A DNA stretch of 63,132 bases, counting the filler. It is 7 parts of 7 records of this genome, joined end to end, with 100 filler letters (N's around TTAATTAATTAA, not from the genome) between each part and the next. Parts side by side here need not be neighbours in the genome. Positions count along the whole stretch, not along the records: positions 49,924 to 57,751 come from SRR31156797_18831; 6 more parts are not named here. One strand, given 5' to 3'. A program made the position numbers and the translations under genes. Positions 42,537-58,951 of the stretch are shown piece after piece; position 1 is the stretch's first letter, and the number at the start of each line of letters is the position of its first letter. A model generated the notes under the pieces. The model saw only the letters and a list, made by a program, of their open reading frames with translations, was not told the origin of the DNA and made no database searches.

Positions 42537-42587
42537 TGTAGTCCGGAGAAATCAAAGCATATTCACCCTTTACTAAGGAGGCTCTTT

Positions 42588-43124: not shown

Positions 43125-43127
43125 CTG

Positions 43128-43577: not shown

Positions 43578-43652
43578 AGCCGGATTTTTTCAAATTATTG
43601 AAAGTTAGATTAGCAATGAACTTGGGTCATTGCTAATTTTGTTTGTAGGCTA

Positions 43653-44555
43653 TTGCGCAAGGAGGATGTTGGGGTGGTCGATGTAGATTCCTTTCCTGTT
43701 ATTGTTGTGAGCGGTCTTTCCGGGGCCGGTAAATCTACTGTTCTGAAGGTTTTTGAGGATCTGCGTTTTTTCTGTGTGGATGGACTGCCAGCTAGTATGC
43801 TTCCGCGTTTGGTCGAACTGTTTAATACCCGTGACAATGCTTATCGTGGTTTGGTGCTGGGCATGGATCTACGCCAGTTGGAATTCAGCGTCGACTGGGA
43901 GGCTACCCGTGAAGAACTTACATCCAAGGGATATCGCCCAAGTATTCTTTATCTTGAAGCCCGGTTGCCGGAGCTTGTACGCAGATATGCTACTACCCGC
44001 CGCTTGCATCCTCTCGAATCCAAGAATATAGGATTGGAGCAAGCGCTTGAAAAAGAGAAGGAAGCTCTTGGCGAAGTTCGTCAGCAGGCCGATTTGGTTA
44101 TTGATACGACGACTTACTCAATTCATGATCTGCGTCGTCGAATTCAGGAAAAATGGGCAGAGCTTAGTGAAAAGACGCGTGGATTGCGCGTGCATGTTAT
44201 GTCTTTTGGCTTTAAGCACGATGTTCCAACCGCAGCGGATATGGTCATGGACCTCCGTTTTTTGCCTAATCCATATTTCGAAGAAGAGCTCCGTCCGCTT
44301 TCCGGTCAGGATAAAGCTATTTCAGATTATGTTTTAGGTACCGAACCGGGCTCAATTTTTATTGAGAAATATCTCGATTTCCTTCAATATGTCCTTCCTC
44401 TTTACGAGGCGGAAGGAAGATACAGGCTAACCATTGCCGTAGGTTGTACCGGCGGACGCCATCGCTCCGTTGCCACGGCTGAAAGGATATTTGCAACTCT
44501 TAAAGATAATGGTTATTCTGTCTCACTTGAGCATAAGCACATTCATTTGAAATAG
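43653..44555 (+). CDS. rapZ: RNase adapter / P-loop protein RapZ
   Basis: GLSGAGKS, TTRRLHP, SFGFK, RFLPNP, GCTGGRHRSV; start may be the GTG at 43674. Confidence 0.95.
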   Translation: MRKEDVGVVDVDSFPVIVVSGLSGAGKSTVLKVFEDLRFFCVDGLPASMLPRLVELFNTRDNAYRGLVLGMDLRQLEFSVDWEATREELTSKGYRPSILYLEARLPELVRRYATTRRLHPLESKNIGLEQALEKEKEALGEVRQQADLVIDTTTYSIHDLRRRIQEKWAELSEKTRGLRVHVMSFGFKHDVPTAADMVMDLRFLPNPYFEEELRPLSGQDKAISDYVLGTEPGSIFIEKYLDFLQYVLPLYEAEGRYRLTIAVGCTGGRHRSVATAERIFATLKDNGYSVSLEHKHIHLK

Positions 44556-44584
44556 TTTTATAGTTGAATATATCGGGAATTTTG

Positions 44585-45013
44585 ATGGGCATAGAATCTA
44601 GCAAAAACGGAATTGTTCTCGTTACCCATGGTAACTTCGGACAGGCGCTTATTGAAGCGGGTGAATTGATTGTCGGTCCTCAGGAGGGAGTGCTTTCCCT
44701 TAGTGTCGATGTCTCTCAGGGCATTGATGCGGCAGTGGACTCCTTGAAAAGCAATATTGCCGAAGTGAATAACGGGAACGGAGTTCTCATTCTTACAGAT
44801 ATGTTCGGCGGAACACCCACGAACCTTAGTCTTTCCCTTTTGCAGGGTGATGATATTGAAGTTGTCACCGGGGTCAGCCTGCCTATGCTTCTGAAAGCTT
44901 TTCAGATGCGTAACGAGTCTTTGCAGAAGATGGCCGAAGAGGTTAGTAAAGCCGCGGCTAAAGGTATTGTAATTGCCGGCGAAATGCTGCGAAAACGAAC
45001 TTCCAAAGGGTAG
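44585..45013 (+). CDS. PTS mannose-family IIA component
   Basis: LVTHG, LTDMFGGTP, GVSLPML. Confidence 0.92.
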   Translation: MGIESSKNGIVLVTHGNFGQALIEAGELIVGPQEGVLSLSVDVSQGIDAAVDSLKSNIAEVNNGNGVLILTDMFGGTPTNLSLSLLQGDDIEVVTGVSLPMLLKAFQMRNESLQKMAEEVSKAAAKGIVIAGEMLRKRTSKG

Positions 45014-45014
45014 C

Positions 45015-45476
45015 ATGATGTGGGTGAGAATTGATAACCGTCTTGTTCATGGGCAGATTATTGAAACATGGCTTCCGTACACCCACGCAAAACATATAAT
45101 CGTGGCCAACGATGCCGTTGCCGGGGATGATTTGCAGCAGCAGATTATGTCACTGGCAATTCCGCAGTCAGTGAGCTGTTTTTTTTGTTCGGTAGAAGAT
45201 TTGAATGAGAAGATTCCTGCCCTGACCAACGGTAATGGGAGTACTATTATTCTGTTCTCGTCCTGTGCTGATGTGCGTAGGGCTTTGGATTCCGGCTTCA
45301 GGTTCAGTTCGGTCAATATCGGTAATATTCATTATGGTCCCGGTAAAAAACAGATTTCCCCCAGCGTGGCTTTGAGTTCTGATGATGAATCCTGTCTACA
45401 TTATTTTAAAGGGCAGGGCATAGAACTTGATTTTCGCTGTGTTCCTAATGATCCTGTACAGGTGAGGTTTTCATGA
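45015..45476 (+). CDS. PTS mannose/sorbose-family IIB component
   Basis: RIDNRLVHGQI, VNIGNIH. Confidence 0.92.
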   Translation: MMWVRIDNRLVHGQIIETWLPYTHAKHIIVANDAVAGDDLQQQIMSLAIPQSVSCFFCSVEDLNEKIPALTNGNGSTIILFSSCADVRRALDSGFRFSSVNIGNIHYGPGKKQISPSVALSSDDESCLHYFKGQGIELDFRCVPNDPVQVRFS

Positions 45477-46188
45477 GTCTGTTTCAAGGATTAGCTTTGT
45501 CCTTTCCCGTCTGGGTAGCTCTGATCGGTTTTTTTTTGCGATTTTTTCGCTTTTCCGTTTCACAATAAATCCCGGCCTTCTTGAACGGCCCCTTGTGGTA
45601 GGTGCCCTTTGGGGCGCTGTTACCGGCGATGTGGCTACGAGTCTCAAGATTGCCGTTTTTTTTGAGCTTTTCTGGCTGGATAACATTCCGGCTGGAACCT
45701 ACATTCCTCCCCATATTTTGGCCCCTACATTTGCCGCGTTAGCGTTAGCCACTTCTTTTGCATTTACCGAAGCACGTCAGGTTATGGTAATTCTGCTGGC
45801 TTGTTTGCCTTTGGCACGCATTGGAGCGTGGATGGATTATTCCCTCAGGCAATGGCACAACAGGGGATATAACAAACTTATCGGCTGGGCCCGTAAGGGT
45901 AAGGCGGGTGATCAACTCCCGCAAAAGCTGGTTTTTCGCTCTATTTTAAGAACTTTTGTTACTTCTTGGCTTTTTTTCTGGACAAGCACCATCATCCTTC
46001 ATTATATCCTTTGTATATTTTTTCACAAATGGGGACCGTTGGTCGCCGGAGTGGATATGAAATGGTCTTTTCTATGGATTGCAGCAAGCCTTGGAGGTCT
46101 TCTGGCCCTCAGACTGCGGAAAGCCTATGCCACTTTTGTCTTCGGAGTGGTCTTTTTCGGCTTTTTTATCCTTGCCGGGATTATATAG
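45473..46188 (+). CDS. PTS mannose-family IIC component, split by a -1 frameshift at a T9 tract (45529-45537)
   Basis: ATGA-coupled start gives MSLFQGLALSFPVWVALIGFF then stops after 31 codons; the -1 frame continues AIFSLFRFTINPGLLERPLVVG...ELFWLDNIPAGTYIPP. Confidence 0.7.
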
Positions 46189-46263
46189 ACTTGGCATAGA
46201 AAAAAGATTGTGATAGAAGACACAAGCTCAATTAGCTACCATATTTCTTAGGAGGAAATCATT

Positions 46264-47184
46264 ATGGCTATTATCGCAGTAGGACACAAAAACCCCGATA
46301 CCGATACCATTGCATCCGCAATCGCAATTGCTGACCTCTGGTCCAAAGCAAAAGAAGAAACCAAAGCTGTTGCACAGGGCGAACTTGCTCCTGAAACCGC
46401 TTTTGTTCTTGAAAAATTCGGTTGCGTTGCTCCCGAAATCATGACCGATGCTACCGATCAGAAAGTTATCCTCGTTGACCACTCTGACATTGCTCAGTCC
46501 ATGGACAACCTTGATAAGGGTGAAGTTGTAGCAGTAGTTGATCACCACAAACTTGGTGACGTAACTACCCCCAACCCCCTCGAAATGTGGGTATGGCCTG
46601 TAGGCTGCACCGGTACCGTTATCAACGCAATGTACAAGTTCTACAATGTAGAAATCCCCAAGAACATTGCTGGCGTACTTCTCTGTGCAATCCTGTCTGA
46701 CACCGTTATGTTCAAGTCCGTAACCTGCACCGAAGCTGACAAAGAAGCTGTTGCAGAACTGGCTAAGATTGCAGGTGTTGAAGACGTTATGGCTCTCGGA
46801 ATGGAAATGTTCAATGTTAAGTCCGCAGTTGCCGGTGCTTCCATGAATGAACTCATCTTCCGTGACTACAAAGATTTCGACATGTCCGGCAAAAAAGTTG
46901 GCATCGGCCAGCTTGAAGTTGTTGATCTGTCCGTTTTTGATAATATTAAAGATGACCTTTACGCTGAACTTGAAAAAGTTAAAGCTGACGGCCGTCACAG
47001 CTGCTTCCTGCTGCTGACCGACATCATGAAAGAAGGCTCTGAAATGCTCATCGTTTCCGACGACGCTTCTGTTGTTGAAAAAGCATTCGGCGTTGCTCCT
47101 GAAGGTACCAAAGTATACCTCGAAGGCGTAATGTCCCGCAAAAAGCAGGTTGTACCTAACTTTGAGAAAGCTTTCTCCGCATAA
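46264..47184 (+). CDS. ppaC: Manganese-dependent inorganic pyrophosphatase (family II)
   Basis: GHKNPDTD, VDH, DHH, ILSDT, SRKKQVVP. Confidence 0.96.
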   Translation: MAIIAVGHKNPDTDTIASAIAIADLWSKAKEETKAVAQGELAPETAFVLEKFGCVAPEIMTDATDQKVILVDHSDIAQSMDNLDKGEVVAVVDHHKLGDVTTPNPLEMWVWPVGCTGTVINAMYKFYNVEIPKNIAGVLLCAILSDTVMFKSVTCTEADKEAVAELAKIAGVEDVMALGMEMFNVKSAVAGASMNELIFRDYKDFDMSGKKVGIGQLEVVDLSVFDNIKDDLYAELEKVKADGRHSCFLLLTDIMKEGSEMLIVSDDASVVEKAFGVAPEGTKVYLEGVMSRKKQVVPNFEKAFSA

Positions 47185-47208
47185 GTTAAGTTAACATCGC
47201 TTCTTTAG

Positions 47209-47241
47209 GTCCGGCAGGTTAAGTCCTGCCGGACTTTTTTT
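47209..47241 (+). terminator. Intrinsic terminator after ppaC
   Basis: GTCCGGCAGG/CCTGCCGGAC stem plus T-run. Confidence 0.85.
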
Positions 47242-47347
47242 ATGTCGACGAAGGGCAGGGTGTTGCGTTACTAATTGTTTTTTCTTACATTTTAAATTCG
47301 TGATTCGGCTGGCTCGATTGGAGTTTATTAATATACAATGAGGTTTT

Positions 47348-47575
47348 ATGAAGATTACCTTGCTCTGTTATGCAACCTTTGCTGTTAAAAGCCCTGAAAA
47401 TTCTGAGGCATATCCTATTTCAGAAGGCGAAACTGTCTCAGATGTACTTGAAAGGGTGGGTATTCCAATTGACGAGGTAAAGATCGTTTTTGTTAACGGA
47501 GTGTCCTCAAAATTTGATATGCCACTTCAGGATGGTGATCGTGTTGGAGTTTTTCCTGCGGTCGGTGGTGGCTGA
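47348..47575 (+). CDS. MoaD/ThiS family sulfur carrier
   Basis: 75 aa, FVNG, GDRVGVFPAVGGG C-terminus. Confidence 0.9.
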   Translation: MKITLLCYATFAVKSPENSEAYPISEGETVSDVLERVGIPIDEVKIVFVNGVSSKFDMPLQDGDRVGVFPAVGGG

Positions 47576-47602
47576 TTATTTTTTTGTAATGGGGAGGTAG
47601 GG

Positions 47603-48109
47603 ATGAATTTTTTTGCACGAATAATGATTCTGAGTATGCTGTTGACGGCTCTCTTGGTCTCAGCCGTTGGTGCGGCGACTATCAACGGGAAAAATTGGTA
47701 TAATGAATCTCCGGGTGTGCATACAATGCAGATCTGGGTAGTTGAGCCGGATGTTTCCATTAAGAATGTTAAGTTCAAGAATGGGGAAAGCTCTTCATGG
47801 TCATGGCAATACGTGGATTCCACAAAGCAATCCGTTATCATGAGCGGGCCTAAGGCTTCTGGGGTTAACGCGATTAGACCTGATTTTCAGTTTACTTCGC
47901 CGCATAAAAAATACGATTTTTCAGTTGAATGGGCTGAGTTAAGTCAGGGGAATACCCTCACCGGGACAAATTTCTACATCAATAAAAAATGGCAATATAC
48001 TAAAGGTGATATCTCTCACGCGCCTACGCCTATTCCCGGAGCGGTCTTGTTATTTGCTGCTGGGCTTTCTGTGCTGGCTTTTCTGCGGCGTAAGATGTTC
48101 CATTCATAG
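47603..48109 (+). CDS. PEP-CTERM/VPLPA-CTERM-type exosortase substrate
   Basis: Signal peptide; C-terminal TPIPGAVLLFAAGLSVLAFLRRK. Confidence 0.8.
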   Translation: MNFFARIMILSMLLTALLVSAVGAATINGKNWYNESPGVHTMQIWVVEPDVSIKNVKFKNGESSSWSWQYVDSTKQSVIMSGPKASGVNAIRPDFQFTSPHKKYDFSVEWAELSQGNTLTGTNFYINKKWQYTKGDISHAPTPIPGAVLLFAAGLSVLAFLRRKMFHS

Positions 48110-48279
48110 CTTTTTTATCACAGGTTCCTAAAGAGTGGATAGCGTTTGCTTTTTAGAAAGTTGTTTAGTGGTGGTGTTTTTACAAAAATAAAAGCGACGT
48201 TTATAGTGTTGATAATCTATTGTGCTCGTGGTATCGGCATATCGTTCAGGAAAATTAAATACTCCTGAAGGAGGAAAAT

Positions 48280-48630
48280 ATGGGCAGTAGATGCCTTTTG
48301 AAGTCGAAAATTCACAGAGCAACCATTACCGACGCTAATGTCGATTATGAAGGTTCTATTTCAATTGATGTGAATCTGCTTGAAAAAGCAGGAATCCTTC
48401 CCTTTGAACGAGTCGATGTTCTCAATGTCGATAATGGGGAAAGGCTCACCACTTACGCCATTGAGGGCGGTCCTGGTGAGTTTTGTCTGAATGGTGCAGC
48501 AGCACATAAGGGCGAGGCCGGACAGAAAATTATTATCTGCTCCTATACATGGCTGGATGAAGACGAACTTGGGCTTCATAAGCCACAAGTTGTCCTTCTC
48601 GGTGACGGAAATAAGGTCAAGAAAGCATAA
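48280..48630 (+). CDS. panD: Aspartate 1-decarboxylase
   Basis: KSKIHRA, YEGSI cleavage site, NGERLTTYAI, LNGAAAH. Confidence 0.96.
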   Translation: MGSRCLLKSKIHRATITDANVDYEGSISIDVNLLEKAGILPFERVDVLNVDNGERLTTYAIEGGPGEFCLNGAAAHKGEAGQKIIICSYTWLDEDELGLHKPQVVLLGDGNKVKKA

Positions 48631-48640
48631 TAGCTCTATC

Positions 48641-48670
48641 AAAAAGGCGCGGTAAACCGCGCCTTTTTTT
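48641..48670 (+). terminator. Intrinsic terminator after panD
   Basis: AAAAAGGCGCGG-TAAA-CCGCGCCTTTTT. Confidence 0.85.
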
Positions 48671-48716
48671 ATTTCTATATATTATGTATACAGAAGGCAG
48701 CAAAAGGGAGGATGTA

Positions 48717-49727
48717 ATGAAAAAAAGATTTCTAGCTATATTGTGCGGTTTGGTTCTGGTATCTGGTTGCGCTCCGGTAATTAAGACCCAGTCTATACCT
48801 GTCTCGACGAATCCCATGGGTGCCACTGTTTATACTGACGGTAAAGTCGCCTGTACTTCTCCGTGTACTGTTGATCTTCCCCGCAACGCCGATCATATCA
48901 TTACGGTGAAGAAAGACCAGTACCGTCAGCAGGATGTGATAATTAAGCGTGTCTATCAGCAGGAAAAGGTTATGATGAAGGCTGTGTCGCAGGGCATGCA
49001 GTCATCTTCCATGGCTGTAGGTAGCGGCGGCGATAAAACAGCATGGGGAATGATGCAGGGAGTTAATTCCATTGATTCACAGGAGGAGACAGGAGATGCA
49101 TATGTGCTGGCTCCTTCGGCCGTATCTGTGCGTCTTGTTCCTTTAACAGCCCAAGCTCAGTATGAAATGACTGGGTCAACCGCACCGGATATTCAAAGTC
49201 TGACATCAACTGACCGTGCTCAAATCAGTTATATCCTGGAAACCATGAAGTCCGGTACTGATTTTAATTGGGCTAATTCCCAGACTGGGATTAAATATGA
49301 TTTACACGCAGGTCCTGCGCTTCCTGGTTATGATGCACCGACTCGTGCATTTATATTAAAGATGACCGCTCACGGTCAGACATCTAAATACGATGCTAAG
49401 GCCAGCAGAGTGGGGGAAGGAAAATGGAGTATACTCGGTAATGGAGCTTCGACATCCATGGTTACTGATGATGGTAGCGGAGTGCATGTTTCACAGCCTG
49501 CGACAATGAATTCCGATACATTTGTAAAGGATGCAGTTAAGGCGGGAGCTATGGCTGCTCCGACAATTCACGGTGGTGTGACAGCTAAAGGAGCTTCATC
49601 AAGCGAAGGATGGGACGGGGATACCTATACGAAGAAGTCTTCGTCTACCAAGGTGAAAGCGGGTGTGAGTGTTAATCCTGCGCAAGCTTTGGAAGTTCTG
49701 GACATGATTACTAATGATAAGAAGTAG
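48717..49727 (+). CDS. PEGA-domain lipoprotein
   Basis: Lipobox VSGC, VSTNPMGATVYTDG...TSP PEGA-like; ATG after GGGAGG. Confidence 0.75.
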   Translation: MKKRFLAILCGLVLVSGCAPVIKTQSIPVSTNPMGATVYTDGKVACTSPCTVDLPRNADHIITVKKDQYRQQDVIIKRVYQQEKVMMKAVSQGMQSSSMAVGSGGDKTAWGMMQGVNSIDSQEETGDAYVLAPSAVSVRLVPLTAQAQYEMTGSTAPDIQSLTSTDRAQISYILETMKSGTDFNWANSQTGIKYDLHAGPALPGYDAPTRAFILKMTAHGQTSKYDAKASRVGEGKWSILGNGASTSMVTDDGSGVHVSQPATMNSDTFVKDAVKAGAMAAPTIHGGVTAKGASSSEGWDGDTYTKKSSSTKVKAGVSVNPAQALEVLDMITNDKK

Positions 49728-49752
49728 TGTTTGAAAGGCGATAATATGTTTT

Positions 49753-49780
49753 AGGGCAGAGGGTGATTCTCTGCCTTTTT
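49753..49780 (+). terminator. Intrinsic terminator
   Basis: GGCAGAG/CTCTGCC stem plus T-run. Confidence 0.7.
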
Positions 49781-49823
49781 ATTACAGAGATAACTTAATC
49801 CTCTCCAGCCCGCACTATTAAGC

Positions 49824-49923
49824 NNNNNNNNNNNNNNNNNNNNNNNNNNNNNNNNNNNNNNNNNNNNTTAATTAATTAANNNNNNNNNNNNNNNNNNNNN
49901 NNNNNNNNNNNNNNNNNNNNNNN
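49824..49923. other. Artificial contig linker
   Basis: Ns + TTAATTAATTAA. Confidence 0.99.
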
Positions 49924-49924
49924 T

Positions 49925-50209
49925 CTGGTGGATGCTGAGTTTCATCTCCAAATTGCGTCAATCACGCGGAATGGATCGCTTGAGAATATGTTGAGGATAA
50001 ATCTTGAACATGTAAACCTCCGGTTCCGTTTGGATCATTGCGATGCCGGCAGGATGCCGACGGCGCTTCAAGAGCATCGGGATTTGGTTAAAGCCATAAA
50101 GCAGAAGGATGTACTGAAAAGCATTGACATTGTGAGGATGCACGTACGAAGGGGAAGAGATACTTGTATCAATTGCCTTTCGACGGATGAAGATACGATT
50201 AATCTGTAG
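49925..50209 (+). CDS. GntR family regulator, FCD C-terminal fragment (5' truncated)
   Basis: DAEFHLQIA...N..L...EHRDLVKAI...HV pattern. Confidence 0.85.
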   Translation: MVDAEFHLQIASITRNGSLENMLRINLEHVNLRFRLDHCDAGRMPTALQEHRDLVKAIKQKDVLKSIDIVRMHVRRGRDTCINCLSTDEDTINL

Positions 50210-50246
50210 AAAACAACAGTTTCTCGGTTGTTGGGGGTAGTCATAT

Positions 50247-51923
50247 ATGGGTTCGGGCGATATACAAAAGGCTTTCGAAAAATGGCAAGGCACAACACTC
50301 AAAAGAGTGCTTGATAAATCTGCGGAAAGAGAAAAGGCCTTTGCTACCGAAAGCGGCATTCCTGTTAAGAGACTTTATACGCCTTCAGACCTCGAGCATA
50401 CGGATTACAACAAGGATCTCGGTTTCCCCGGGGAAGAACCCTATACGAGAGGCGTCTATCCCACCATGTATCGCGGACGTCTCTGGACCATGAGAAACTA
50501 CGCGGGGTTCGGGACTGCCGAGGATACGAACAAGCGATTTCGTTACCTCCTGGAGCAGGGCATGCCGGGATTGTCGGTGGCATTTGATCTCCCCACCCAG
50601 CTTGGATATGACTCAAATGATCCCGTGGCCGAGGGTTCTGTTGGGAGGGTGGGAGTTGCGGTAGACACATTGGCTGACATGGAAATAATTTTCAAAGACA
50701 TTCCTTTGGACAAAGTTTCCACCTCCATGACAATCAATGCGCCGGCTACGGTCCTTCTGGCCATGTATATGGTGGTGGGAGAGAAGCAAGGCATTCCAAA
50801 AGAAAAACTAACAGGCACAACCCAGAATGATATCCTGAAAGACTTCATCGCCCGAGGCACCTACATTTTCCCCCCCGAACCGAGCATAAGACTCTGCCTG
50901 GACATTATTGAATATTGCTACAGACATGTTCCCAGATGGAATACGCTGAGCATAACGGGATATCATATCAGAGAAGCTGGTGCCAATGCCATACAAGAAC
51001 TGGCCTTTACCCTTGCAAATGCAATCACTTACATAGAAAAGGCCCAAGAGAGGGGCCTCCATGTGGACGAATTTGCTCCCCGATTGTCATACAGCCTTGG
51101 ATGTCATAGAGACCTTTTTGAGGAAGTGGCGAAATATCGTGCGGCCAGAAGATTGTTTGCAAAGATCATAAAGAAGCGTTTTAAGGCAAAAAATCCCAAA
51201 AGTTTTCTTTTCAGGACCTATAGCGGATCGTGCGGCTCTACCCTGATTACACAGCAACCGTTAAATAACATCGCTCGGGTGACCATGCACGCGCTTATGG
51301 GGATCCTTGGCGGGCATCAGGCGATTCATACCGCCTGCTGGGACGAGGGGTATGCCATCCCCACCGAAGATTCGGCCATGATTGCGCTTAGGACCCAACA
51401 GATCCTGGCCCATGAAAGCGGTCTCACCAAAACCATCGATCCATTGGCAGGTTCATACTATGTGGAATCCCTGACCGATGAAATTGAGAAGAGGGCATCC
51501 GAATATCTTGAGAAAATAGACCGGATGGGGGGGATGCTCAAGGCCATAGAAAACGGATTTGTATTCCAGGAAATTCAGGAATCAAGTGTTCAATTTCAGA
51601 AGGAAGTGGATAGCGGTGAAAAGGTTATCGTGGGTCTGAATAAATTTACCATTCCGGAAGAGGAAGACTTTGAGGAACAGGATATTTTTGAAACAGACTC
51701 AAGAGTTGAGAACTTGCAGAAAGAAAAACTCGAAAAGGTGAAGGCTGAAAGGAATGGAGAAGATGTTGAATCGGCCATGGGTGAATTAAAAAAGGCCATC
51801 GACAGTGACGAGAATCTCATGCCCTTCATTATTGAGGCGGTGAAACATTATGCCACTCTCGGGGAGATCTGTCAGGTGATGAGAGAAAAGTGGGGAGAGT
51901 TCAAGCCCACTACCTATATCTAA
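50247..51923 (+). CDS. B12-dependent acyl-CoA mutase, large (substrate-binding) subunit, methylmalonyl-CoA mutase family
   Basis: PYTRG, GLSVAFDLPTQ, SMTIN, QNDILK, ARGTY, GYHIREAG, ALRTQQI, DPLAGSY. Confidence 0.93.
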   Translation: MGSGDIQKAFEKWQGTTLKRVLDKSAEREKAFATESGIPVKRLYTPSDLEHTDYNKDLGFPGEEPYTRGVYPTMYRGRLWTMRNYAGFGTAEDTNKRFRYLLEQGMPGLSVAFDLPTQLGYDSNDPVAEGSVGRVGVAVDTLADMEIIFKDIPLDKVSTSMTINAPATVLLAMYMVVGEKQGIPKEKLTGTTQNDILKDFIARGTYIFPPEPSIRLCLDIIEYCYRHVPRWNTLSITGYHIREAGANAIQELAFTLANAITYIEKAQERGLHVDEFAPRLSYSLGCHRDLFEEVAKYRAARRLFAKIIKKRFKAKNPKSFLFRTYSGSCGSTLITQQPLNNIARVTMHALMGILGGHQAIHTACWDEGYAIPTEDSAMIALRTQQILAHESGLTKTIDPLAGSYYVESLTDEIEKRASEYLEKIDRMGGMLKAIENGFVFQEIQESSVQFQKEVDSGEKVIVGLNKFTIPEEEDFEEQDIFETDSRVENLQKEKLEKVKAERNGEDVESAMGELKKAIDSDENLMPFIIEAVKHYATLGEICQVMREKWGEFKPTTYI

Positions 51924-51951
51924 AAGTCTTTGAAAACCTGGGAAATACGTA

Positions 51952-52353
51952 ATGAAAAAACGAAAAATAAGAATATTAATTGCAAAGGCCGGACTTGACG
52001 GCCATGACCGCGGGGCCAAAATTGTAGCCCGGGCATTGAAAGATGCGGGTATGGAAGTTATTTATACGGGCCTCAGACAATCCGTGGATCAAGTGGTTAG
52101 CGCAGCGGTTCAGGAAGATGTGGATGTGGTGGGCCTCAGTTTCCTTTCAGGGGACCATCTGATCTTGCTTCCGAAAGTGGTTCAGCGGCTGAAAGAACAG
52201 GGGAAAGGGGACGTTACTATTCTGGCGGGTGGCATAATATTAAAACGCCACATACCGGACCTTGAAAAGATTGGGGTGAAAAAGGTTTTTTTACCTGGCA
52301 CGTCTCCAGGAAAGATCGTTGGGTACATTGAGGATAATGTCTACCGGTCATGA
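51952..52353 (+). CDS. Acyl-CoA mutase small subunit (cobalamin-binding domain)
   Basis: [18 protein letters not shown]. Confidence 0.95.
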
Positions 52354-52434
52354 GGTGATTACCCAATCTTAAAGATGCAATCTGTTGGTGCGGATTGTTC
52401 CTTTTTCGGCCAAAAACAAAAGGGAGGTCGGTTT

Positions 52435-53562
52435 ATGTATTCTTTGCCATTTTCCTCGGAGGAATACGGGGAAAGACTTAAGAAAGTCAGACAGCGGATG
52501 TGGGAGGAGGGGTTAGACGCCATCATCCTTACCAGGGCTCAGAACATCTATTGGGTGGGGGGATACCGGGCGGCCGTCATGAACTGGACCCTCCCGCTCC
52601 TGGCGCTGGTCATCCCTCAAAAAGGTGAGATGCGTTTCCTGACCCGCGTCATTGAAAGCGCTACTGCTGATACCCAGTTGGCCCCAAACCCGAGGAAGTA
52701 CAAGGATCATGAGAAACCATATGACATCCTGGCCGAGCTTGTCCGGGAATGTGTGGCGGAATCGGATACTGTGGGTGTGGAAGAGTCCTTTATGACCGTT
52801 TCGCAGCTGAATCTGATGAAACAGGCCCTCCCTGATGCCAATTTCAAGGACGTCAGTTGGCTTGTGGAAAATATAAGGATTACGCTATCGGAACAGGAGG
52901 TCGCCTATTTCAGAAGGGCAGCCGAAGTCACGAATATCGGATTTTCACGGGGTCTTGAACTCATGAAGGCGGGGGTGTACCCCTATGAAATGATCGGGGA
53001 GATGCAAAATGCCATGTATCAGGCAGGTCAATCCGATGTGGAGGTTCCCAAAATGTGGATCTGGTCGGGGCCGGAAGGGGGCTTGATGCACGACACCGCC
53101 GTCAACCGCCGGATAAAAAAGGGAGACCTGGCCACCATGGAAGTTTGGGGGACGGACTGTCAGTACCTGGTGGGCGCCCAAGGGACCGTTTTTCTTGGAG
53201 ACGCGCCCGGTATGGAAGTTTTGGACGAACAAAAACTCGTGTCGGAGATGTATCTGGCGGCAAAAGAGGTTTTGAAGCCGGGGGCCGTTTCCGGAGATGC
53301 GTATGGGGCCGCCAACAAGGTCTACCGGTCTGCCAAGGGTGAAGATTACTGGCGAAGGGTAGGGGCGAACATGGGGTTGACATTCGGCCCTGTGGATATG
53401 GGTATGACGGGAGATCACATTCTTGAGCCCTGGACCCCGTTTATTCTTCAGATAGTAGAGGTGAAGCCGGTCTTGGCAACCTGTTGCAGTACCCTTCTTG
53501 TGACTGAGTCCGGTTGTGAGGAACTGACCCCGCCTCTGCTCGAGCTAAAATGTCTCGCCTGA
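52435..53562 (+). CDS. M24/creatinase-fold hydrolase (ectoine hydrolase/creatinase-like)
   Basis: FSSEEYGERL creatinase N-terminal domain, pita-bread domain (MHD..NRRIKKGD, LLVTESGCEELT); ATG after GGGAGG. Confidence 0.82.
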   Translation: MYSLPFSSEEYGERLKKVRQRMWEEGLDAIILTRAQNIYWVGGYRAAVMNWTLPLLALVIPQKGEMRFLTRVIESATADTQLAPNPRKYKDHEKPYDILAELVRECVAESDTVGVEESFMTVSQLNLMKQALPDANFKDVSWLVENIRITLSEQEVAYFRRAAEVTNIGFSRGLELMKAGVYPYEMIGEMQNAMYQAGQSDVEVPKMWIWSGPEGGLMHDTAVNRRIKKGDLATMEVWGTDCQYLVGAQGTVFLGDAPGMEVLDEQKLVSEMYLAAKEVLKPGAVSGDAYGAANKVYRSAKGEDYWRRVGANMGLTFGPVDMGMTGDHILEPWTPFILQIVEVKPVLATCCSTLLVTESGCEELTPPLLELKCLA

Positions 53563-53660
53563 AAACCACGACCCAAAGTTTGATAACACTTTTAAATTGT
53601 ATGATGAATGACAAACGAAACCATTTTAGCTTCTAATTCTTAGTGAGGGAGGTAGGAAAA

Positions 53661-54347
53661 ATGAGTCAGAAGGCCTGGCAAAAAGGGCTTGAGAAAATTC
53701 CTCAAGCAGTGGGGGAATTCCCCGTGGATCCGAAAAACATGGCCCTGCTGGTGATCGACATGCAGTATTACGTTGCTCATCCCGATTACGGCGTATTGAA
53801 GAACTTTATTGAGGCAGACCCCGAATCAGCGCAGTATTATTGCGATCGGTTGAAAATAGCGGTTCCCAACTGCGCCAAACTCCTTGATTGTTTCCGAAAA
53901 AACAAAATGCGCATCTTTTACGGCGCCTATGGCGCTTCGCTGCTTGACGGAAGCGATCTACACCCCCTCCGGCAGGCGAGGCTGAAGGAAGTTCCGTCCT
54001 TTACGACGGAGGACTTTGAATTCAAGGTCCTGGAAGAAGTCAAACCCCAGCGAGGGGAGTTGGTGGTTCCGAAATCGACCCGCAGCGCCTTTACGGGTAC
54101 CTCCCTTGACCACAGGATGAGAATGAGCGGCATCGAGACCGTTGTGGTGGTCGGCGTCGCCACGGACGTATGTGTTAGCAGCACCGCCAGAGGGGCCTGG
54201 GATCTTGGGTTCAAGGTCATTCTGATTGACGATGCTTCCGCGACCTTTACCGAGGAAGATCAGGTTTACACCATGAGAAACTGGGCTGCGTTCTTCGGCA
54301 AGGTCATGGACACGGACGAACTCGCTTCGATCCTCAATGAGCAGTAA
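53661..54347 (+). CDS. Isochorismatase-family cysteine hydrolase (amidase)
   Basis: Asp-Lys-Cys triad: VIDMQ, PKSTRSAF, GVATDVCV. Confidence 0.9.
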   Translation: MSQKAWQKGLEKIPQAVGEFPVDPKNMALLVIDMQYYVAHPDYGVLKNFIEADPESAQYYCDRLKIAVPNCAKLLDCFRKNKMRIFYGAYGASLLDGSDLHPLRQARLKEVPSFTTEDFEFKVLEEVKPQRGELVVPKSTRSAFTGTSLDHRMRMSGIETVVVVGVATDVCVSSTARGAWDLGFKVILIDDASATFTEEDQVYTMRNWAAFFGKVMDTDELASILNEQ

Positions 54348-54380
54348 ACGCCAACTCTTAATTTTTCAGGAGGCAAAAAA

Positions 54381-54701
54381 ATGATTTATCTGCATGTTAC
54401 GGTTCAGGTTCACCGCGGCAAGATGAACGAGTGGACCAAGATTTTCCGGGAACACCTGCTGCCGGCCATGGAGAAACACGGGCAAAGGCTGGTGGCGGCA
54501 TGGAAGACCAGCGTAGGCCTTTATGACGAGGTGACGGATCTTTACGCCTTTGAAGATTTTACCGAGTTCCAGAAGATTCGGGAAAAGCTCTTCAATGAAC
54601 CGGAAGTTCAGAAATGGTTGCCGATTATCTATGAAATCACGGGGAAAGAGGAAAGCAAGATCCTTTCCCCTTTGGGGTATGGCGAAATGACCAAAGAATA
54701 G
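54381..54701 (+). CDS. NIPSNAP family protein
   Basis: 106-aa ferredoxin-like pattern GKM..W...G.RLVAAW...G..DEV..LY...ESKILSP. Confidence 0.75.
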   Translation: MIYLHVTVQVHRGKMNEWTKIFREHLLPAMEKHGQRLVAAWKTSVGLYDEVTDLYAFEDFTEFQKIREKLFNEPEVQKWLPIIYEITGKEESKILSPLGYGEMTKE

Positions 54702-54721
54702 AAGCGGGGTCTTAAATAAGG

Positions 54722-54757
54722 GAACGCCCCGCCTTCCCTTGGTAAGGCGGGGCGTTT
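54722..54757. repeat. GC-rich intergenic hairpin
   Basis: AACGCCCCGCCTT/AAGGCGGGGCGTT inverted repeat inside the operon. Confidence 0.65.
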
Positions 54758-54780
54758 CGTCCAGTCAATTGCGTGGAGGG

Positions 54781-56310
54781 ATGAAGATGCATTTACGGGA
54801 AGTTCTGCTTCGTGAGGCCCGTCGGAACTCGCGGATGGATGCCTTTGTCTATGGGGATCGAAGAATCACTTTCTCACAGCTCAAAGAGAGGGCGTGCAGA
54901 TTGGCCAATGCACTCTCCACTTTGGGAGTCGGGAGAGGGGACCGTGTCGGCATCCTTCTTTTTAACTGCTTAGAGTATCCTGAAATTTTGTGGGCCAATT
55001 TTCTATTGGGGTCCGTGGCCGTCACCCTCAATTTCCGGCTTGTTTCCGAAGAGATTGTTTATGTGCAGGACGTGGCCCAGTTGAAGGTACTAATCCTGGG
55101 GACCGAATTTCTGGACAGGGTCGACCCGGTAAGAGACCGTCTTCCCGGCATTGAAAAATATGTCTGCCTCGGAAAAGAGAAATCACAAGGGACCCTCGAC
55201 TACCATGAATTGGTGGAAAAAGGGAGTGTAATCCTTCCACCTGTTTTGGGCGACGACCGGGATGCCGCCGTAGTCCTGTTCACTTCCGGCACAGCGGCAT
55301 TCCCCAAGGCTGTTGTTCTCACTCACCAAAACCTCATAACGGCGGGCCTCGTCTGGGCCACGGACGTGGGCATAAGGCATGGGGATAACTGCCTTGTGGT
55401 CACCCCCTTCTATCACATCGGGGCCGTGGGCTACCATGTGGCCCACGCCATGTGCGGCGCATCTACCACCTGTTTCCCCCAGCCGAACTGGGATCCTGAG
55501 CTTTTTCTCAGAACCGTGGAGAAAGAAAAAGTTACCTACCTGTATATAACCCCCGGCATGTATCGTCAGGTTTTTTCGGTGCCGGATTTCAGGGAATATG
55601 ATCTCCGTTCATGGCGGGTATGCATAACGGGATCGGAACCTGTTCCCAGGGCAACCGTGGAAGAGATGGCCGAGAACCTTCCCTACGGCAGGATCTATAA
55701 TGAATACGGTTTGACCGAGGCTTCGGGTCCCACGGTATCGGTTGCCAAGCACGAGATGGCCATTGCCAAGGCCCCTTCCGTGGGACGGCCCTTTATTAAT
55801 ACGGACATCCGGATTATGGATGAAAGCGGCCATGAATGCGAGATAGGCCAGGTGGGGGAGATCGTTGTAAAAGGGGATCAGGTGATGAAAGAATATCTGA
55901 ATGATCCCGATACAACCGCGAAAACCCTCAAGGACGGCTGGCTTTATACGGGCGATCTGGGAGAAATGGATGACGAAGGGTTCCTGTACGTGGTGGACAG
56001 GAAAAAAGACATCATCATCAGCGGTGGTGAAAATATCTCATCGGTTGAGGTGGAGTCCACCCTCTATAAGCATCCCAAGATCATGGAGGCCGCCGTCATA
56101 GGCGTACCCGATCCGAAGTTCGGAGAAGGGGTGTGCGCGGTTGTTGTGTCGCGGGAAGGGGAGCGTATTTCGGAGCAGGAGGTCGTGGATTATTGTAAAG
56201 AATATCTTGCGAGCTTCAAAAAGCCCAGAAAGGTTATTTTCACGGATGCCTTGCCTCGAAATCCCTCGGGAAAAGTCCTTAAAAGGGATCTAAGAAAAGC
56301 ATATGCATAA
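54781..56310 (+). CDS. AMP-forming acyl-CoA ligase
   Basis: FTSGTAAFPK, YGLTEA, TGDLG, DRKKD, SGGENI, PRNPSGKV. Confidence 0.92.
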   Translation: MKMHLREVLLREARRNSRMDAFVYGDRRITFSQLKERACRLANALSTLGVGRGDRVGILLFNCLEYPEILWANFLLGSVAVTLNFRLVSEEIVYVQDVAQLKVLILGTEFLDRVDPVRDRLPGIEKYVCLGKEKSQGTLDYHELVEKGSVILPPVLGDDRDAAVVLFTSGTAAFPKAVVLTHQNLITAGLVWATDVGIRHGDNCLVVTPFYHIGAVGYHVAHAMCGASTTCFPQPNWDPELFLRTVEKEKVTYLYITPGMYRQVFSVPDFREYDLRSWRVCITGSEPVPRATVEEMAENLPYGRIYNEYGLTEASGPTVSVAKHEMAIAKAPSVGRPFINTDIRIMDESGHECEIGQVGEIVVKGDQVMKEYLNDPDTTAKTLKDGWLYTGDLGEMDDEGFLYVVDRKKDIIISGGENISSVEVESTLYKHPKIMEAAVIGVPDPKFGEGVCAVVVSREGERISEQEVVDYCKEYLASFKKPRKVIFTDALPRNPSGKVLKRDLRKAYA

Positions 56311-56346
56311 GTGAGAAATGAGAATGTCCGAAAAGGTTTGATGATT

Positions 56347-57714
56347 ATGAATGGGGGAATCAAAAAACTGTTTGAACCTGAATCCATCGCCATGGTGGGC
56401 GTGTCCGGCGAACCAAACAAGATGAGCCACTGGCTCATTCGGAACGTTGCGGAGGCGGGGTTCGAGGGGGCTGTCTACCCTATTAGCCGCAGGGGCGGTC
56501 AAAACCTCGGTTATAGGGTGTACGGAGATTTGAATGAAGTTCCCGAGCCGGTGGATCTTGTACTGGTGAGTGTTGCCAGCAAATTTGTAAAAGATACCAT
56601 TGAAGAAGCAGCCCAAAACAAGGCAGGCGCCGCGGTTATACTCAGTTCGGGGTTCGGGGAGATTCGAGACAAGGCCGGGAAGATTCTCGAGGAAGAGATC
56701 CGGCAGATTGCACGCGAAAACAACATGCGGATTATGGGGCCCAATTGCCTTGGCGTTTATAATGCACACAAACGATTGAACGGAACATACTTTGCCAAGA
56801 CGCCTAAACATAAAGGTAAAATATCTTTGGTTTCGCAGAGCGGGGCTTACGCCGGGGTGCTTGTTGATGAAATGAACCGGCGAGGCATGGGCTTAGGAAA
56901 AATGGCCAGTATCGGGAACCAGATGGATGTCCGGCATCAGGACGTTGTCGAATACCTGGCGGATGACCCGGATACCGACGTTATCGGCCTTTTTGTGGAA
57001 GGGGTCAAGGACGGTTCCGGTTTCCTTTCGGTTGTCAAAGCGGTTTCCAGGATCAAGCCCATCGTTATCCTGAAGGGGGGCCGCACCGATGCGGGTTCAA
57101 GGGCCGTTGTCTCCCATACGGGATCTCTGGCGGGAGATTTCAGGGTGGCCAAGGCCGCTTTTGCTCAGGCCGGCGCTCTTGTGGCAGAAACCACTGAGGA
57201 TTTTCTGGACTATCTGTTTGCCCTTTCCCATAACCGTCAACAACTGCCGGGGGACGAGAGATTGGCCATCGTAACCATTTCAGGAGGACCTTGCGTTGCC
57301 GCCAGCGACTATTGTGAGGAACTGGGCCTTAAAGTACCCGAGTTGGGTGAGGACACCAGAGAGAAACTCCGGGAATACATCCCCTTTTTCGCAGCGGATT
57401 CAAATCCTGTGGATATGACCGTCGGTATCCCCTTGGAGAATATCGGCCCGTGCGTGGATGCGGTAATTTCCGATCCTGATATTTCAGGGGCCATCGCCAT
57501 TAACTGGGGATGGGATGTGAAGGAATTCGCCGATGCTTTTGTTGATGCATCAAAAAGACACAAAAAACCTGTCCTTGCCTTTGCAAGTGAGAATCCAACG
57601 GTCCAGGACATCTTTCGCAGGGGCGGCATTATTAATTTCCCCGCACCTGAAAGAGCTGTAAAGGCCTATTGGGGTCTCCTACAGTACCGAAAAGTGATCG
57701 ATAAAAAATCATAG
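56347..57714 (+). CDS. ADP-forming acyl-CoA synthetase alpha subunit (AcdA-like)
   Basis: CoA-binding domain, GPNCLG, SQSG, SHTG phospho-His, ISGG, NPVD; start uncertain (56311-56347). Confidence 0.88.
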   Translation: MNGGIKKLFEPESIAMVGVSGEPNKMSHWLIRNVAEAGFEGAVYPISRRGGQNLGYRVYGDLNEVPEPVDLVLVSVASKFVKDTIEEAAQNKAGAAVILSSGFGEIRDKAGKILEEEIRQIARENNMRIMGPNCLGVYNAHKRLNGTYFAKTPKHKGKISLVSQSGAYAGVLVDEMNRRGMGLGKMASIGNQMDVRHQDVVEYLADDPDTDVIGLFVEGVKDGSGFLSVVKAVSRIKPIVILKGGRTDAGSRAVVSHTGSLAGDFRVAKAAFAQAGALVAETTEDFLDYLFALSHNRQQLPGDERLAIVTISGGPCVAASDYCEELGLKVPELGEDTREKLREYIPFFAADSNPVDMTVGIPLENIGPCVDAVISDPDISGAIAINWGWDVKEFADAFVDASKRHKKPVLAFASENPTVQDIFRRGGIINFPAPERAVKAYWGLLQYRKVIDKKS

Positions 57715-57725
57715 AAGGAGGTTTT

Positions 57726-57751
57726 ATGAAAAAGTTCGATTATTATCAACC
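57726..57751 (+). CDS. Start of next gene, possibly a xanthine-dehydrogenase-family FAD-binding subunit
   Basis: AAGGAGG RBS then MKKFDYYQ(P); only 8 codons visible. Confidence 0.45.
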
Positions 57752-57851
57752 NNNNNNNNNNNNNNNNNNNNNNNNNNNNNNNNNNNNNNNNNNNNTTAAT
57801 TAATTAANNNNNNNNNNNNNNNNNNNNNNNNNNNNNNNNNNNNNNNNNNNN
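57752..57851. other. Artificial contig linker
   Basis: Ns + TTAATTAATTAA. Confidence 0.99.
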
Positions 57852-58951
57852 AACCTGTCTGGATCGGCCGGAATGATATCGTCCGGCACTTTGGGGCCGT
57901 TTGTTAAAAATGACACCGGCTTCTTCGATTTTATCAGGTTGTTGATGACGTTTCCATAACGTTGTGTCTCATCGATTTTAGAAATTATCAGGCTTTCAAC
58001 CGGCAGACCGGCCGACATGCCGATAGCGGCGGCTATATCCCGGTCTTTTGTAACCGCGGACAACACCAACATGATTTCAATTTCTTTAATATCCTTAACA
58101 AGCTCGGCCAATTCGTCCCGATCCGAATCGCGGGAAAGGCGCCTGCTGCTGGTGTCCATGAGCACCACGTCCATGTTTTCGAATAGCTCTATCGCCTGTT
58201 TTAATTCATTTTTATCCTGTACTATCATTACGGGCAAGCCAATAATTCGAGCGAATGTTTTCAATTGTTCCGCCGCTCCCAGTTTTATGTCGTCCAGGCT
58301 GATCAAACCGACCTTTTTCTGCTCTTTTACCGAAAGAAGGGCGGCCAGCTTGGCCAGGGTCGTGGTCTTGCCGACTCCGCTGGGGCCGACCAGGGCTATA
58401 TACCGGGGATTACGTCCGGAAATGCGCTCAAAGGGACGGCTTGTTCTGAGAAGCCTGGCCAGCCTTTGTTCCAGGGCCTTTACCGGGTTGACTCCCCGGC
58501 CATTGGATTCGGCGGCTTTTTCAACAAGGGTTCGGGCAATGGACGGCTCCAACTCATTGTCCAGTAAATCCCGATACAATCTTAACAGGTCTTTTCTGTC
58601 CCTGATGCGTTCGGAAAGGCTGGACCGGTGGGTCAGGTCCATAAGCATATTTTTTATTTCAGCCAGCCCTCCTTCCAGGGCGGACAAATCAGGACCCGGG
58701 GCGGCCTTTTCCTTTTTGACCGCGGGAGAAGGCTTGTCTCGTTTTACTTTCCGGACTTCAGGCTTTTCGGCAGGTTTGGCCGCGGGTTCGGCCTGGTAGC
58801 CGACGCCGGCCGTCACCTCGACCATGGGCCCCCATTCTTCAGCATCCTTGATTTCCCTCGTGGAAAGGATTACAGCCTCGGAGCCCAGTTCATCCTTGAT
58901 CATTTGCAAGGCGGTTTTTATGTCTTTGGCCCTGTATCTTTTAATTCGCAT
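57852..58951 (-). CDS. flhF: Flagellar SRP-type GTPase FlhF (3' end truncated)
   Basis: MRIKRYRA...ELGSEAVILS, GPSGVGKTTTLAKLA, SKIDET, GPKVPDDI; follows flhA. Confidence 0.9.

Follow-up and report, generated by a model that had tools for sequence, protein, structure and literature searches.

The window analysed here, a stretch of 63,132 nucleotides, consists of seven contigs joined by six 100-bp linkers, and the genes of interest lie on the sixth contig (7.8 kb, 49924–57751), where an acyl-coenzyme A (CoA) mutase is encoded by two adjacent genes. Because the linkers split the window, only this contig counts as the real context of the mutase. The large-subunit (catalytic) gene (50247–51923, + strand) translates without a stop into 558 amino acids, with PF01642 covering residues 34–550 (703.1 bits) and TIGR00641 matching at 751.4 bits, compared to a cut-off of 303.8. 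The gene for the B12-binding small subunit (51952–52353, +; 133 residues) begins 29 bp downstream and matches PF02310 (85.2 bits) and TIGR00640 (150.2 bits); its DGHDRG sequence fits the base-off/His-on motif DxHxxG, which is kept in 36 of 37 small-subunit orthologues. By family, fold and cofactor motif the gene pair, judged from its sequence, is an intact adenosylcobalamin (AdoCbl)-dependent acyl-CoA mutase. The large subunit scores 623.4 bits with the methylmalonyl-CoA mutase (MCM) equivalog NF006944 (cut-off 876), although this model is one for the fused form of 721 residues, and a split protein with canonical motifs (locus L064) likewise reaches only 669 bits; with NF045497, the model for the fused isobutyryl-CoA mutase IcmF, it scores 307.8 bits against a cut-off of 1500.

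A preliminary description of this gene had proposed that the carboxylate and radical machinery of MCM is kept and that the motifs lining the pocket are rewritten, and the alignment to the P. shermanii MCM (1req_A) bears out both parts. Tyr85, Gln193, Arg203, His240 and Glu367 of the large subunit pair with P. shermanii Tyr89, Gln197, Arg207, His244 and Glu370; the clamp and radical motifs concerned are MRNYAGF (Tyr85), TTQNDILKDFIARGT (Gln193 and Arg203) and TGYHIRE (His240), where IRQYAGF aligns with MRNYAGF, TIQNDILKEFMVRNT with TTQNDILKDFIARGT, and GYHMQE with GYHIRE. The remodelled motifs, PRLSYSLGCH, FRTYSGSCGSTL and GGHQAIHTACWDE, are all present in the 558-residue translation, and comparison with 1req_A shows PRLSFFWGIG replaced by PRLSYSLGCH, RTHSQTSGWSL by RTYSGSCGSTL, and QSLHTNSLDE by QAIHTACWDE. 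P. shermanii numbers are obtained by adding 4 to the large-subunit number up to approximately residue 311 and 3 thereafter (there is a one-residue gap in 1req), and the numbering is anchored by 5req_A, which is titled 'Y89F mutant' in the PDB and has Phe in the column of 1req_A Tyr89. The substitutions F287S, H328Y, Q330G and N366A had thus been numbered correctly, and correspond to Ser283, Tyr325, Gly327 and Ala363 of the large subunit; T331S (Ser328) is to be added to them.

The remodelled motifs are shared by a well-populated group of relatives. The best 120 matches in a set of 5.8 billion proteins are 77–87% identical to the large subunit, and all of those that are named are called 'methylmalonyl-CoA mutase' and are assigned to Deltaproteobacteria or to metagenome-assembled genomes (MAGs) of Desulfobacteraceae. 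Among the large subunit and these 120 proteins PRLSYSL[GSA] and TTQNDILK[DE]FIARG each occur in 121 of 121, and AIHT[ASG][CS]W in 119. A scan of species-representative genomes yielded 60 loci (designated here with the prefix L, and the genomes with the prefix G), all of them in MAGs, and 49 are clade members at 67–92% identity, with a broken copy (L058) and a fragment (L060) in addition. The carriers include Desulfobacterales, Desulfomonile, Syntrophobacteraceae, Desulfobulbales-type bacteria, Burkholderiales, Ramlibacter and Rhodoblastus. SYSL, GSCGS and QAIHT[AS][CS]W are found in the large subunit and in all 44 loci that were aligned with it (65–92% identity), and R[NQ]YAGF, TTQNDI[LM]K[DE]FIARG, GYH[IF]RE, PRLSYSL[GS]C[HYF], [FL]R[TI][YF][ST]GSCGS[TS]L and QAIHT[AS][CS]WDE are near-invariant in the same set. 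The mutase match in L058 (approximately 10042–11651) is only 52–53% identical and contains no long open reading frame (ORF), and its neighbouring genes form a complete module at 69–87% identity; this is probably a broken or error-ridden copy.

A maximum-likelihood tree of 68 rows (LG+G4, quick search; each row covers at least 440 residues of the large subunit, and six duplicates of included loci were removed) places 43 of them in one clade with a Shimodaira-Hasegawa approximate likelihood-ratio (SH-aLRT) support of 100, a stem length of 0.46 and short branches within. This clade is separate from four MCMs that pass NF006944 (1222–1244 bits, cut-off 876) and form a clade of their own (SH-aLRT 100), as well as from an archaeal split group and from IcmF, one member of which passes NF045497; a long-branch warning applies to other parts of the tree. 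The protein from the window lies outside the canonical MCM clade, which is in keeping with the preliminary description. In a library of representatives at 50% identity the best match is 52–53% identical and no listed representative has the clade motifs, and the clade appears to have been folded into a neighbouring cluster at this level. Clade-level matches (E ≤ 1e-220) are present in three of 401 sampled genomes from the class of one carrier, with the three best candidates per genome scored, and the 432 matching records in a plasmid collection include no clade member, the best being 57.7% identical. This sporadic spread fits an accessory catabolic trait.

An AlphaFold2 model of the large subunit, built from an alignment of 61 sequences, has a mean predicted local distance difference test (pLDDT) score of 94.1 and a predicted template-modelling (TM) score (pTM) of 0.93, and is matched structurally by HcmA, the large subunit of 2-hydroxyisobutyryl-CoA mutase (HCM; 4r3u, TM 0.97, root-mean-square deviation 1.2 Å), and by the human and P. 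shermanii MCMs (TM 0.94). When 42 clade rows are compared with 33 canonical representatives, twelve positions are fixed differently: in large-subunit numbering, and written from the canonical to the clade residue, these are F282Y, F283S, W304F, Q327G, T328S, A351M, A352G, S359A, L360I, N363A, A368G and A447S. Since the canonical representatives were picked for R.H.QT and LHTN, the differences at 327, 328 and 363 are in part a product of that choice. At position 325, additionally, the clade has Tyr or Phe in place of the canonical His. In the model, residues 282–283 lie within a strand at 280–286, residues 325–328 lie in the strand 324–328, and residues 359–363 comprise the strand 359–361 and its exit; these strands are β6, β7 and β8 of the barrel. 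Tyr85, Gln193 and His240 are similarly placed, at or just past the ends of β1, β4 and β5. From the topology of the barrel, therefore, the changed β6–β8 positions would line the substrate channel, and the model suggests that the β6–β8 wall of the substrate pocket has been rebuilt in this clade. The preliminary description had called the changes mostly large-to-small, and this agrees with general side-chain volumes, by which F287S, H328Y, Q330G and N366A together would remove about 170 Å3; such a loss would be compatible with a substituent that contains several heavy atoms.

Two of the remodelled positions can be related to human MCM, in which residue numbers are given by the chain index plus 10, an offset that also reproduces Tyr110 and Arg228. 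His350 is the human counterpart of Tyr325 in the alignment, and Gln352 that of Gly327. A mut0 patient is listed with p.His350Tyr as one of the alleles (PMC9490190), and p.Q352R has been reported as a presumed deleterious variant (PMC6998079), which lends weak support to the idea that methylmalonyl-CoA turnover is poorly served by such changes.

The remodelling is not peculiar to this clade. We surveyed the 150 best representatives of the family, 113 of which are gap-free at nine test positions; 64 of these keep both Tyr and Arg, and in 35 of the 64 the canonical His/Gln/Asn triad is missing. The 29 that retain the triad, by which the class is defined, also have Phe287 and Thr331. The idea that the pattern is something special to this enzyme does not survive this count, and because 35 of 64 have a non-canonical barrel, much of what databases name 'methylmalonyl-CoA mutase' is probably something else. 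Nor could the proposal be upheld that His328, Gln330 and Asn366 set specificity among MCM, isobutyryl-CoA mutase (ICM) and HCM, since the P. shermanii and human MCMs, HcmA and the IcmF-type paralogues have all three residues in common, as do, by the way they were chosen, the 33 canonical representatives. Of the comparators examined, only the presumptive ethylmalonyl-CoA mutase (ECM) described below differs in these segments.

Comparison with the individual mutases shows where the new enzyme agrees and where it departs. With MCM (1REQ/4REQ; human 2XIJ/2XIQ) it shares the fold, the equivalents of Tyr89, Gln197, Arg207, His244 and Glu370 and the B12 motif in the partner subunit, but it is split into two genes, is only 41–43% identical in Foldseek alignments, differs by F287S, H328Y, Q330G, T331S, N366A and eight more fixed differences, and belongs to a separate clade. 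HcmAB (4R3U) is the best match both in sequence (E 9.6e-168) and in structure (TM 0.97, 46% identity) and has the same split architecture; however, Tyr85, Ala112 and Arg203 of the new mutase are Ile, Asp and Gln in HcmA, in which the canonical FF, H.Q and HTN, lost from the new mutase, are also preserved. The three HcmA residues are numbered Ile90, Asp117 and Gln208, in agreement with the chain index minus 11. IcmF (4XC6) is a member of the same superfamily (TM 0.84), but in the IcmF-type paralogues Phe and Gln stand at the Tyr and Arg positions, and H.Q and HTN are as in the canonical proteins. ECM is represented by a gene (L084/L091) next to ccr, the crotonyl-CoA carboxylase/reductase (CCR) gene, in a Rhodoblastus MAG (G005; TIGR01751, 610.8 bits, cut-off 378.55), and it is labelled as an ECM by synteny only. 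It too keeps Tyr and Arg and differs from MCM in the β7 and β8 segments, but these read RYGVQVNSLG and QLPAWNE compared to RTYSGSCGST and QAIHTACWDE in the new mutase, and the protein is fused to its B12 domain. This ECM gene (8484–10470, − strand) is split over two reading frames, reflecting either a frameshift or an assembly error.

The clade member is not the sole mutase of its hosts. Five carrier genomes have 6–10 PF01642 matches each (matches rather than genes, as some genes are in pieces), and a canonical-motif MCM accompanies the clade copy in all five: it passes the equivalog in three genomes, is a split form with canonical motifs in one, and in the fifth is a canonical α gene that is apparently fragmented in the assembly. 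The clade member is therefore an extra paralogue. One of these genomes (G003) carries two clade copies, with L013/L069 in an Amidohydro_2/nitroreductase-like context and L023/L072 in a molybdenum hydroxylase/M24/cysteine-hydrolase context. There is also a second uncharacterised mutase clade (SH-aLRT 100) in four of the five genomes (L074 in G004, L077 in G002, L081 in G003 and L082 in G001), which keeps Tyr and Arg in the motifs TRQY[TS]GF, [IV]GRGAWI[FY] and CGYHIRE, has a glycine-rich β7 (LRGLFGGGG[SF]GL), and has AQTTALCSFDE in place of QSLHTN.

On the sixth contig the mutase genes are part of a single, closely packed row of co-directional genes, all on the + strand, that extends from a partial regulator gene to a nucleoside diphosphate (NDP)-forming synthetase. 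At its left end is the 3′ part (93 codons, 49928–50209) of a GntR/FCD-family regulator gene (PF07729 FCD, E 1.1e-10), cut by the contig start; 21 loci have a full-length orthologue of 224–275 residues in the corresponding position (237 residues in the 92%-identical locus L001), and the ORF is what the contig edge leaves of a complete gene and no pseudogene. To the right of the small-subunit gene is an M24 'pita-bread' hydrolase of the creatinase/ectoine-hydrolase type (52375–53562; PF01321 and PF00557), the true start of which is probably the Met at residue 21, and which has DoeA (6twj, E 2e-18) and creatinase (1chm) as its best PDB sequence matches; orthologues are present in L001, L006 and L023, with a contig-cut match in L002. 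There follow an isochorismatase-family cysteine hydrolase of the amidase type (53643–54347; PF00857, 125.7 bits) with the triad Asp39-Lys144-Cys177 (columns aligned to RutB 8bkd), a NIPSNAP-domain protein (54381–54701; PF07978, E 4.1e-14) with orthologues at 82–83% identity in L002, L006 and L023, and an AMP-forming acyl-CoA ligase (54739–56310; PF00501 and PF13193; NF004837 at 476.3 bits, cut-off 476) with orthologues at 75–77% identity in L002 and L035. The row continues with the alpha part of an NDP-forming acyl-CoA synthetase (56311–57714; PF13380, PF13607 and PF19045), a protein of 467 residues that ends at a genuine stop and whose homologues in L035 and L019 are fused proteins of 690–691 residues. 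The next gene, preceded by an AAGGAGG site, is cut by the contig end after its first 8 codons (57726–57751), and probably encodes the beta portion (ATP-grasp) of the synthetase. An initial view of both the short GntR ORF and the 467-residue synthetase as truncated genes was discarded once the contig linkers had been recognised. No MeaB gene is present on the 7.8-kb contig.

The gene neighbourhoods of the relatives are more complete. Representative neighbours were searched by tblastn against 61 sources (the 60 loci and the window) with thresholds of at least 30% identity and 60% coverage, and those that recur are an mmdA-like carboxyltransferase (37 sources), a nitroreductase-family protein (35), an Amidohydro_2 protein (34), a 175-residue protein of no family (34), a short-chain dehydrogenase/reductase (27), a glyoxalase-fold epimerase (26), a GntR/FCD regulator (21) and a thiolase (17). 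Acyl-CoA dehydrogenases, enoyl-CoA hydratase, CoA ligase and transporters of the tripartite ATP-independent periplasmic (TRAP) or major facilitator superfamily (MFS) types also recur. An example of the epimerase passes TIGR03081 (126 bits, cut-off 115), and the carboxyltransferase scores 695.6 bits, below its cut-off of 998.8. The usual order is carboxyltransferase and epimerase (divergently transcribed in Desulfobacterota), GntR or IclR regulator, mutase large subunit, mutase small subunit, Amidohydro_2, nitroreductase-like protein, the 175-residue protein, and then a ligase or transporter, and the module spans Desulfobacterota, Burkholderiales and Alphaproteobacteria. The 175-residue protein has no match in Pfam or NCBIfam and a weak lead in the Atlas to the ATC-hydrolase family (score 0.90). 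Among solved structures there are only distant matches for the Amidohydro_2, nitroreductase-like, M24 and cysteine-hydrolase proteins.

The mutase of the window belongs to a subclade of nine tree rows (support 87), and a second gene context is found in several of its members and in the fragments L035 and L044, which are too short for the tree. In L002, L006 and L023 this context contains a molybdenum hydroxylase resembling 4-hydroxybenzoyl-CoA reductase (TIGR03194, 692 bits, below the cut-off), together with CoxG, subunits with flavin adenine dinucleotide (FAD) and 2Fe-2S domains, a family-III CoA-transferase, an epimerase, a NIPSNAP protein, a cysteine hydrolase and an M24 hydrolase; parts of it are present on the mutase contig and in L001, L035 and L044. 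In L003 and L004, of the same subclade, the first module occurs in a divergent form. The mutase looks like a common central step that is fed by exchangeable peripheral modules, both of them rich in C–N hydrolases. MeaB-like genes (34–43% identical to archaeal MeaB) occur in the clade loci L019, L025, L033 and L055, in L058 and in the non-clade locus L048, and in nine of the 61 sources overall, non-clade loci included.

Methyltransferase/corrinoid systems adjoin the module in L010, L025 and L058. In L010 (16159–19278) an MttB-family gene appears as three consecutive ORFs (305, 327 and 162 residues), which reflect either in-frame stops or two or more genes, and is accompanied by a corrinoid protein and a class-III aminotransferase; in L025 (approximately 17900–20563) and in L058 (from 17976) there are a uroporphyrinogen decarboxylase (URO-D)-type methyltransferase, a corrinoid protein and a pterin-binding methyltransferase. 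This adjacency may be incidental.

We favor a reading, to which we assign a probability of about 55%, in which the gene pair encodes a functional split AdoCbl-dependent mutase that interconverts a 2-substituted succinyl-CoA and a (substituted-methyl)malonyl-CoA in the catabolism of a nitrogen-containing acid. Because the Tyr/Arg clamp is kept, the substrate would have a free carboxylate, as in MCM and ECM, and because the β6–β8 wall is rebuilt, the physiological substrate, as far as sequence can tell, is probably other than methylmalonyl-CoA. The reaction would be a reversible 1,2-shift of the thioester group, HOOC-CH2-CH(R)-CO-SCoA to and from (R-methyl)malonyl-CoA, and would parallel that of ECM, in which R is methyl. 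In the relatives the product could then be epimerised, decarboxylated by the carboxyltransferase and β-oxidised to acetyl-CoA and R-CO-SCoA. The C–N hydrolases, the molybdenum hydroxylase and the CoA-activating enzymes nearby suggest that the R-succinate is derived from a nitrogen-containing carboxylic acid, and we speculate that hydroxylation, reduction, hydrolytic ring opening or deamidation of an N-heterocyclic, imide or amide acid could supply it; the cyclic-imidase and amidase steps of pyridine-ring catabolism offer a parallel. The indoleacetate pathway (PMC8360864), discussed below, offers another. Speculative candidates for R are carboxymethyl (as in a tricarballylyl-CoA type of substrate), aminoalkyl and aryl groups.

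Several observations weigh against this assignment. Since the hydrolases match characterised enzymes only distantly, the nitrogen-containing acid rests on chemistry at the level of protein families, and the contig of the window itself carries no epimerase, carboxyltransferase or molybdenum hydroxylase. The TIGR03081-passing epimerase and the mmdA-like carboxyltransferase of the relatives are just what a plain methylmalonyl-CoA pathway needs. As 35 of the 64 Tyr/Arg-type representatives have remodelled strands, the pattern alone points to no single substrate, and the roles of His328, Gln330 and Asn366 in the solved MCM structures are presumed ones. In addition, p.His350Tyr comes from a genotype table, in which it stands in trans with another allele (PMC9490190).

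The epimerase (26 of 61 sources) and carboxyltransferase (37 of 61) also speak for a second MCM isozyme, within a catabolic operon that ends in propionyl-CoA or succinyl-CoA, as do the retention of the Tyr/Arg clamp with all of the radical residues and the name 'methylmalonyl-CoA mutase' on every named protein among the best 120 matches. We consider such an isozyme rather improbable, however, in that His328, Gln330 and Asn366 are all replaced and the replacements are fixed in the clade, a canonical-motif MCM coexists in five of five genomes, and the clade is rare, with three of 401 genomes; moreover, the equivalent His-to-Tyr change in human MCM is listed as an allele of a mut0 patient (PMC9490190). 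An ECM-like mutase with a small alkyl substituent, converting ethyl- or propyl-malonyl-CoA to methyl- or ethyl-succinyl-CoA, finds some encouragement in the ccr-linked ECM, which keeps Tyr and Arg and also departs from MCM in β7 and β8, and in the TIGR03081 model, which presumably may cover ethylmalonyl-CoA epimerases as well. It is nevertheless unlikely: the residues of the new mutase differ from those of the ccr-linked protein, and no ccr homologue is present in any of the 60 loci, the single match being 24% identical and on an unrelated contig of the window; the comparator is, furthermore, a MAG gene in two frames that owes its label to synteny.

The recurring neighbours also match the order proposed for alkylsuccinate processing, namely mutase, epimerase, carboxyltransferase and β-oxidation (PMC7701123), and many carriers are Desulfobacterales, which speaks for a mutase that acts on (1-methylalkyl)succinyl-CoA or cycloalkylsuccinyl-CoA when hydrocarbons are degraded anaerobically through fumarate addition. 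There is, however, no glycyl-radical enzyme in any locus, and the neighbours are C–N hydrolases with no hydrocarbon genes among them. Among the eight pyruvate formate-lyase (PFL)-like matches in five carrier genomes seven were scanned, and X-succinate synthase is absent from their listed NCBIfam matches, a result limited by its not being established whether NCBIfam has a model for that enzyme; the best matches are of the hydroxyproline dehydratase, CutC and sulfopropanediol dehydratase types, and one of the five genomes has no PFL-like match at all. With clade members also in Burkholderiales, Ramlibacter and Rhodoblastus MAGs, a role in hydrocarbon degradation is very unlikely. The loss of residues universal in characterised mutases could, finally, mark a relic, or a protein that is non-catalytic or differently catalytic, for instance a regulator, or an enzyme whose substrate has no carboxylate. 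This we find scarcely credible given the 65–92% identity and fixed motifs within the clade, the retained clamp and equivalents of His244 and Glu370, the cognate B12 subunit with DxHxxG in 36 of 37 orthologues, and the MeaB-like genes near some members, which occur in nine of 61 sources with non-clade loci included.

Catabolism of a nitrogen-containing acid through a bulkier mutase substrate, which we prefer, can be set against what is known of related enzymes. The characterised specificities of acyl-CoA mutases are few, comprising MCM, ICM/IcmF, ECM, HCM and a thermophilic relative, pivalyl-CoA mutase (PCM) and an engineered lactyl-CoA mutase, and their value lies in carbon-skeleton rearrangements not otherwise possible, which serve catabolism, the synthesis of natural products and synthetic CO2-fixation pathways. 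The preliminary description had also proposed a mutase for a bulkier substrate, and this is supported to the extent that the changes lie on β6–β8 with the clamp kept; the idea itself is not new, because mutases for bulky substituted malonyl- or succinyl-CoA have been described or proposed, with IaaGH and ActD/MatBQ in print and an alkylsuccinate step proposed. IaaGH of Aromatoleum indoleacetate degradation, compared here by its published description, is of the same proposed type, converting a 2-arylsuccinyl-CoA to an arylmethyl-malonyl-CoA. The indoleacetate pathway reportedly also includes a xanthine-oxidase-family hydroxylase and a ring-opening hydrolase. It differs from the modules described here in using a decarboxylating acyl-CoA dehydrogenase, IaaF, instead of an epimerase and carboxyltransferase, and the hydrolases near the new clade are of the M24, cysteine hydrolase and Amidohydro_2 families. 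The paper on the indoleacetate pathway (PMC8360864) names a CoA ligase and also a family-III CoA-transferase. ActD/MatBQ, likewise compared by description, is a split mutase of an HCM-like subclass for a bulky alkylmalonyl-CoA, with a proposed conversion of hexylmalonyl-CoA to 2-pentylsuccinyl-CoA, but the system is biosynthetic (actinonin and matlystatin), actinomycete, and linked to CCR and an epimerase (PMC5719088). The identity of Streptomyces plasmid homologues to the new mutase is only about 50%, and no CCR lies near the one that was inspected, from Streptomyces canus.

A literature search, which extended neither to supplements nor to some key papers, found no description of the clade or of its gene module, and we regard the clade as a well-defined new variant among mutases of an already known kind. 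A bolder extension, which we think possible but doubtful, is that the clade catalyses a carbon-skeleton rearrangement new to B12 enzymes, for example of tricarballylyl-CoA (2-carboxymethyl-succinyl-CoA) or a 2-(aminoalkyl)succinyl-CoA to the matching malonyl-CoA. The enzyme would then be central to a widespread pathway of uncultured organisms, perhaps in sediment and groundwater bacteria, that mineralises pyridine-carboxylate-type or cyclic-imide compounds by way of two interchangeable modules, these being either Amidohydro_2, the nitroreductase-like protein and the 175-residue protein, or the molybdenum hydroxylase, M24 hydrolase and cysteine hydrolase. With 65–92% identity, a conserved gene module and a distribution confined to MAGs in the genome collection scanned, the clade is a clean target, and identification of the substrate would add a B12 reaction and account for a catabolic route in sulfate reducers of sediments.

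The remaining contigs of the window span 1–10951, 11052–18778, 18879–29510, 29611–36219, 36320–49823 and 57852–63132, and the linkers, at 10952–11051, 18779–18878, 29511–29610, 36220–36319, 49824–49923 and 57752–57851, are of the N/stop form N44-TTAATTAATTAA-N44. As the window is a concatenation of contigs, adjacency across the linkers is without meaning, and a PEGA lipoprotein, panD and flhF were rejected as mutase neighbours, as they sit on other contigs beyond the linkers. The third contig encodes two proteins with Por_Secre_tail sorting domains of the type IX secretion system (T9SS), which are typical of Bacteroidota, and the fourth has a G+C content of 25–29% compared to 42–55% on the others; the bin may mix organisms, and some contigs need not come from the mutase host. 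An Rfam scan of the window gave no match and no cobalamin riboswitch. On the first contig, a single ORF of 865 residues (2896–5493, +) is a fusion of the E2 and E3 components of a 2-oxoacid dehydrogenase complex, with a lipoyl domain, an E3-binding domain and an E2 catalytic domain followed by a full dihydrolipoamide dehydrogenase (Pyr_redox_2 and the dimerisation domain).

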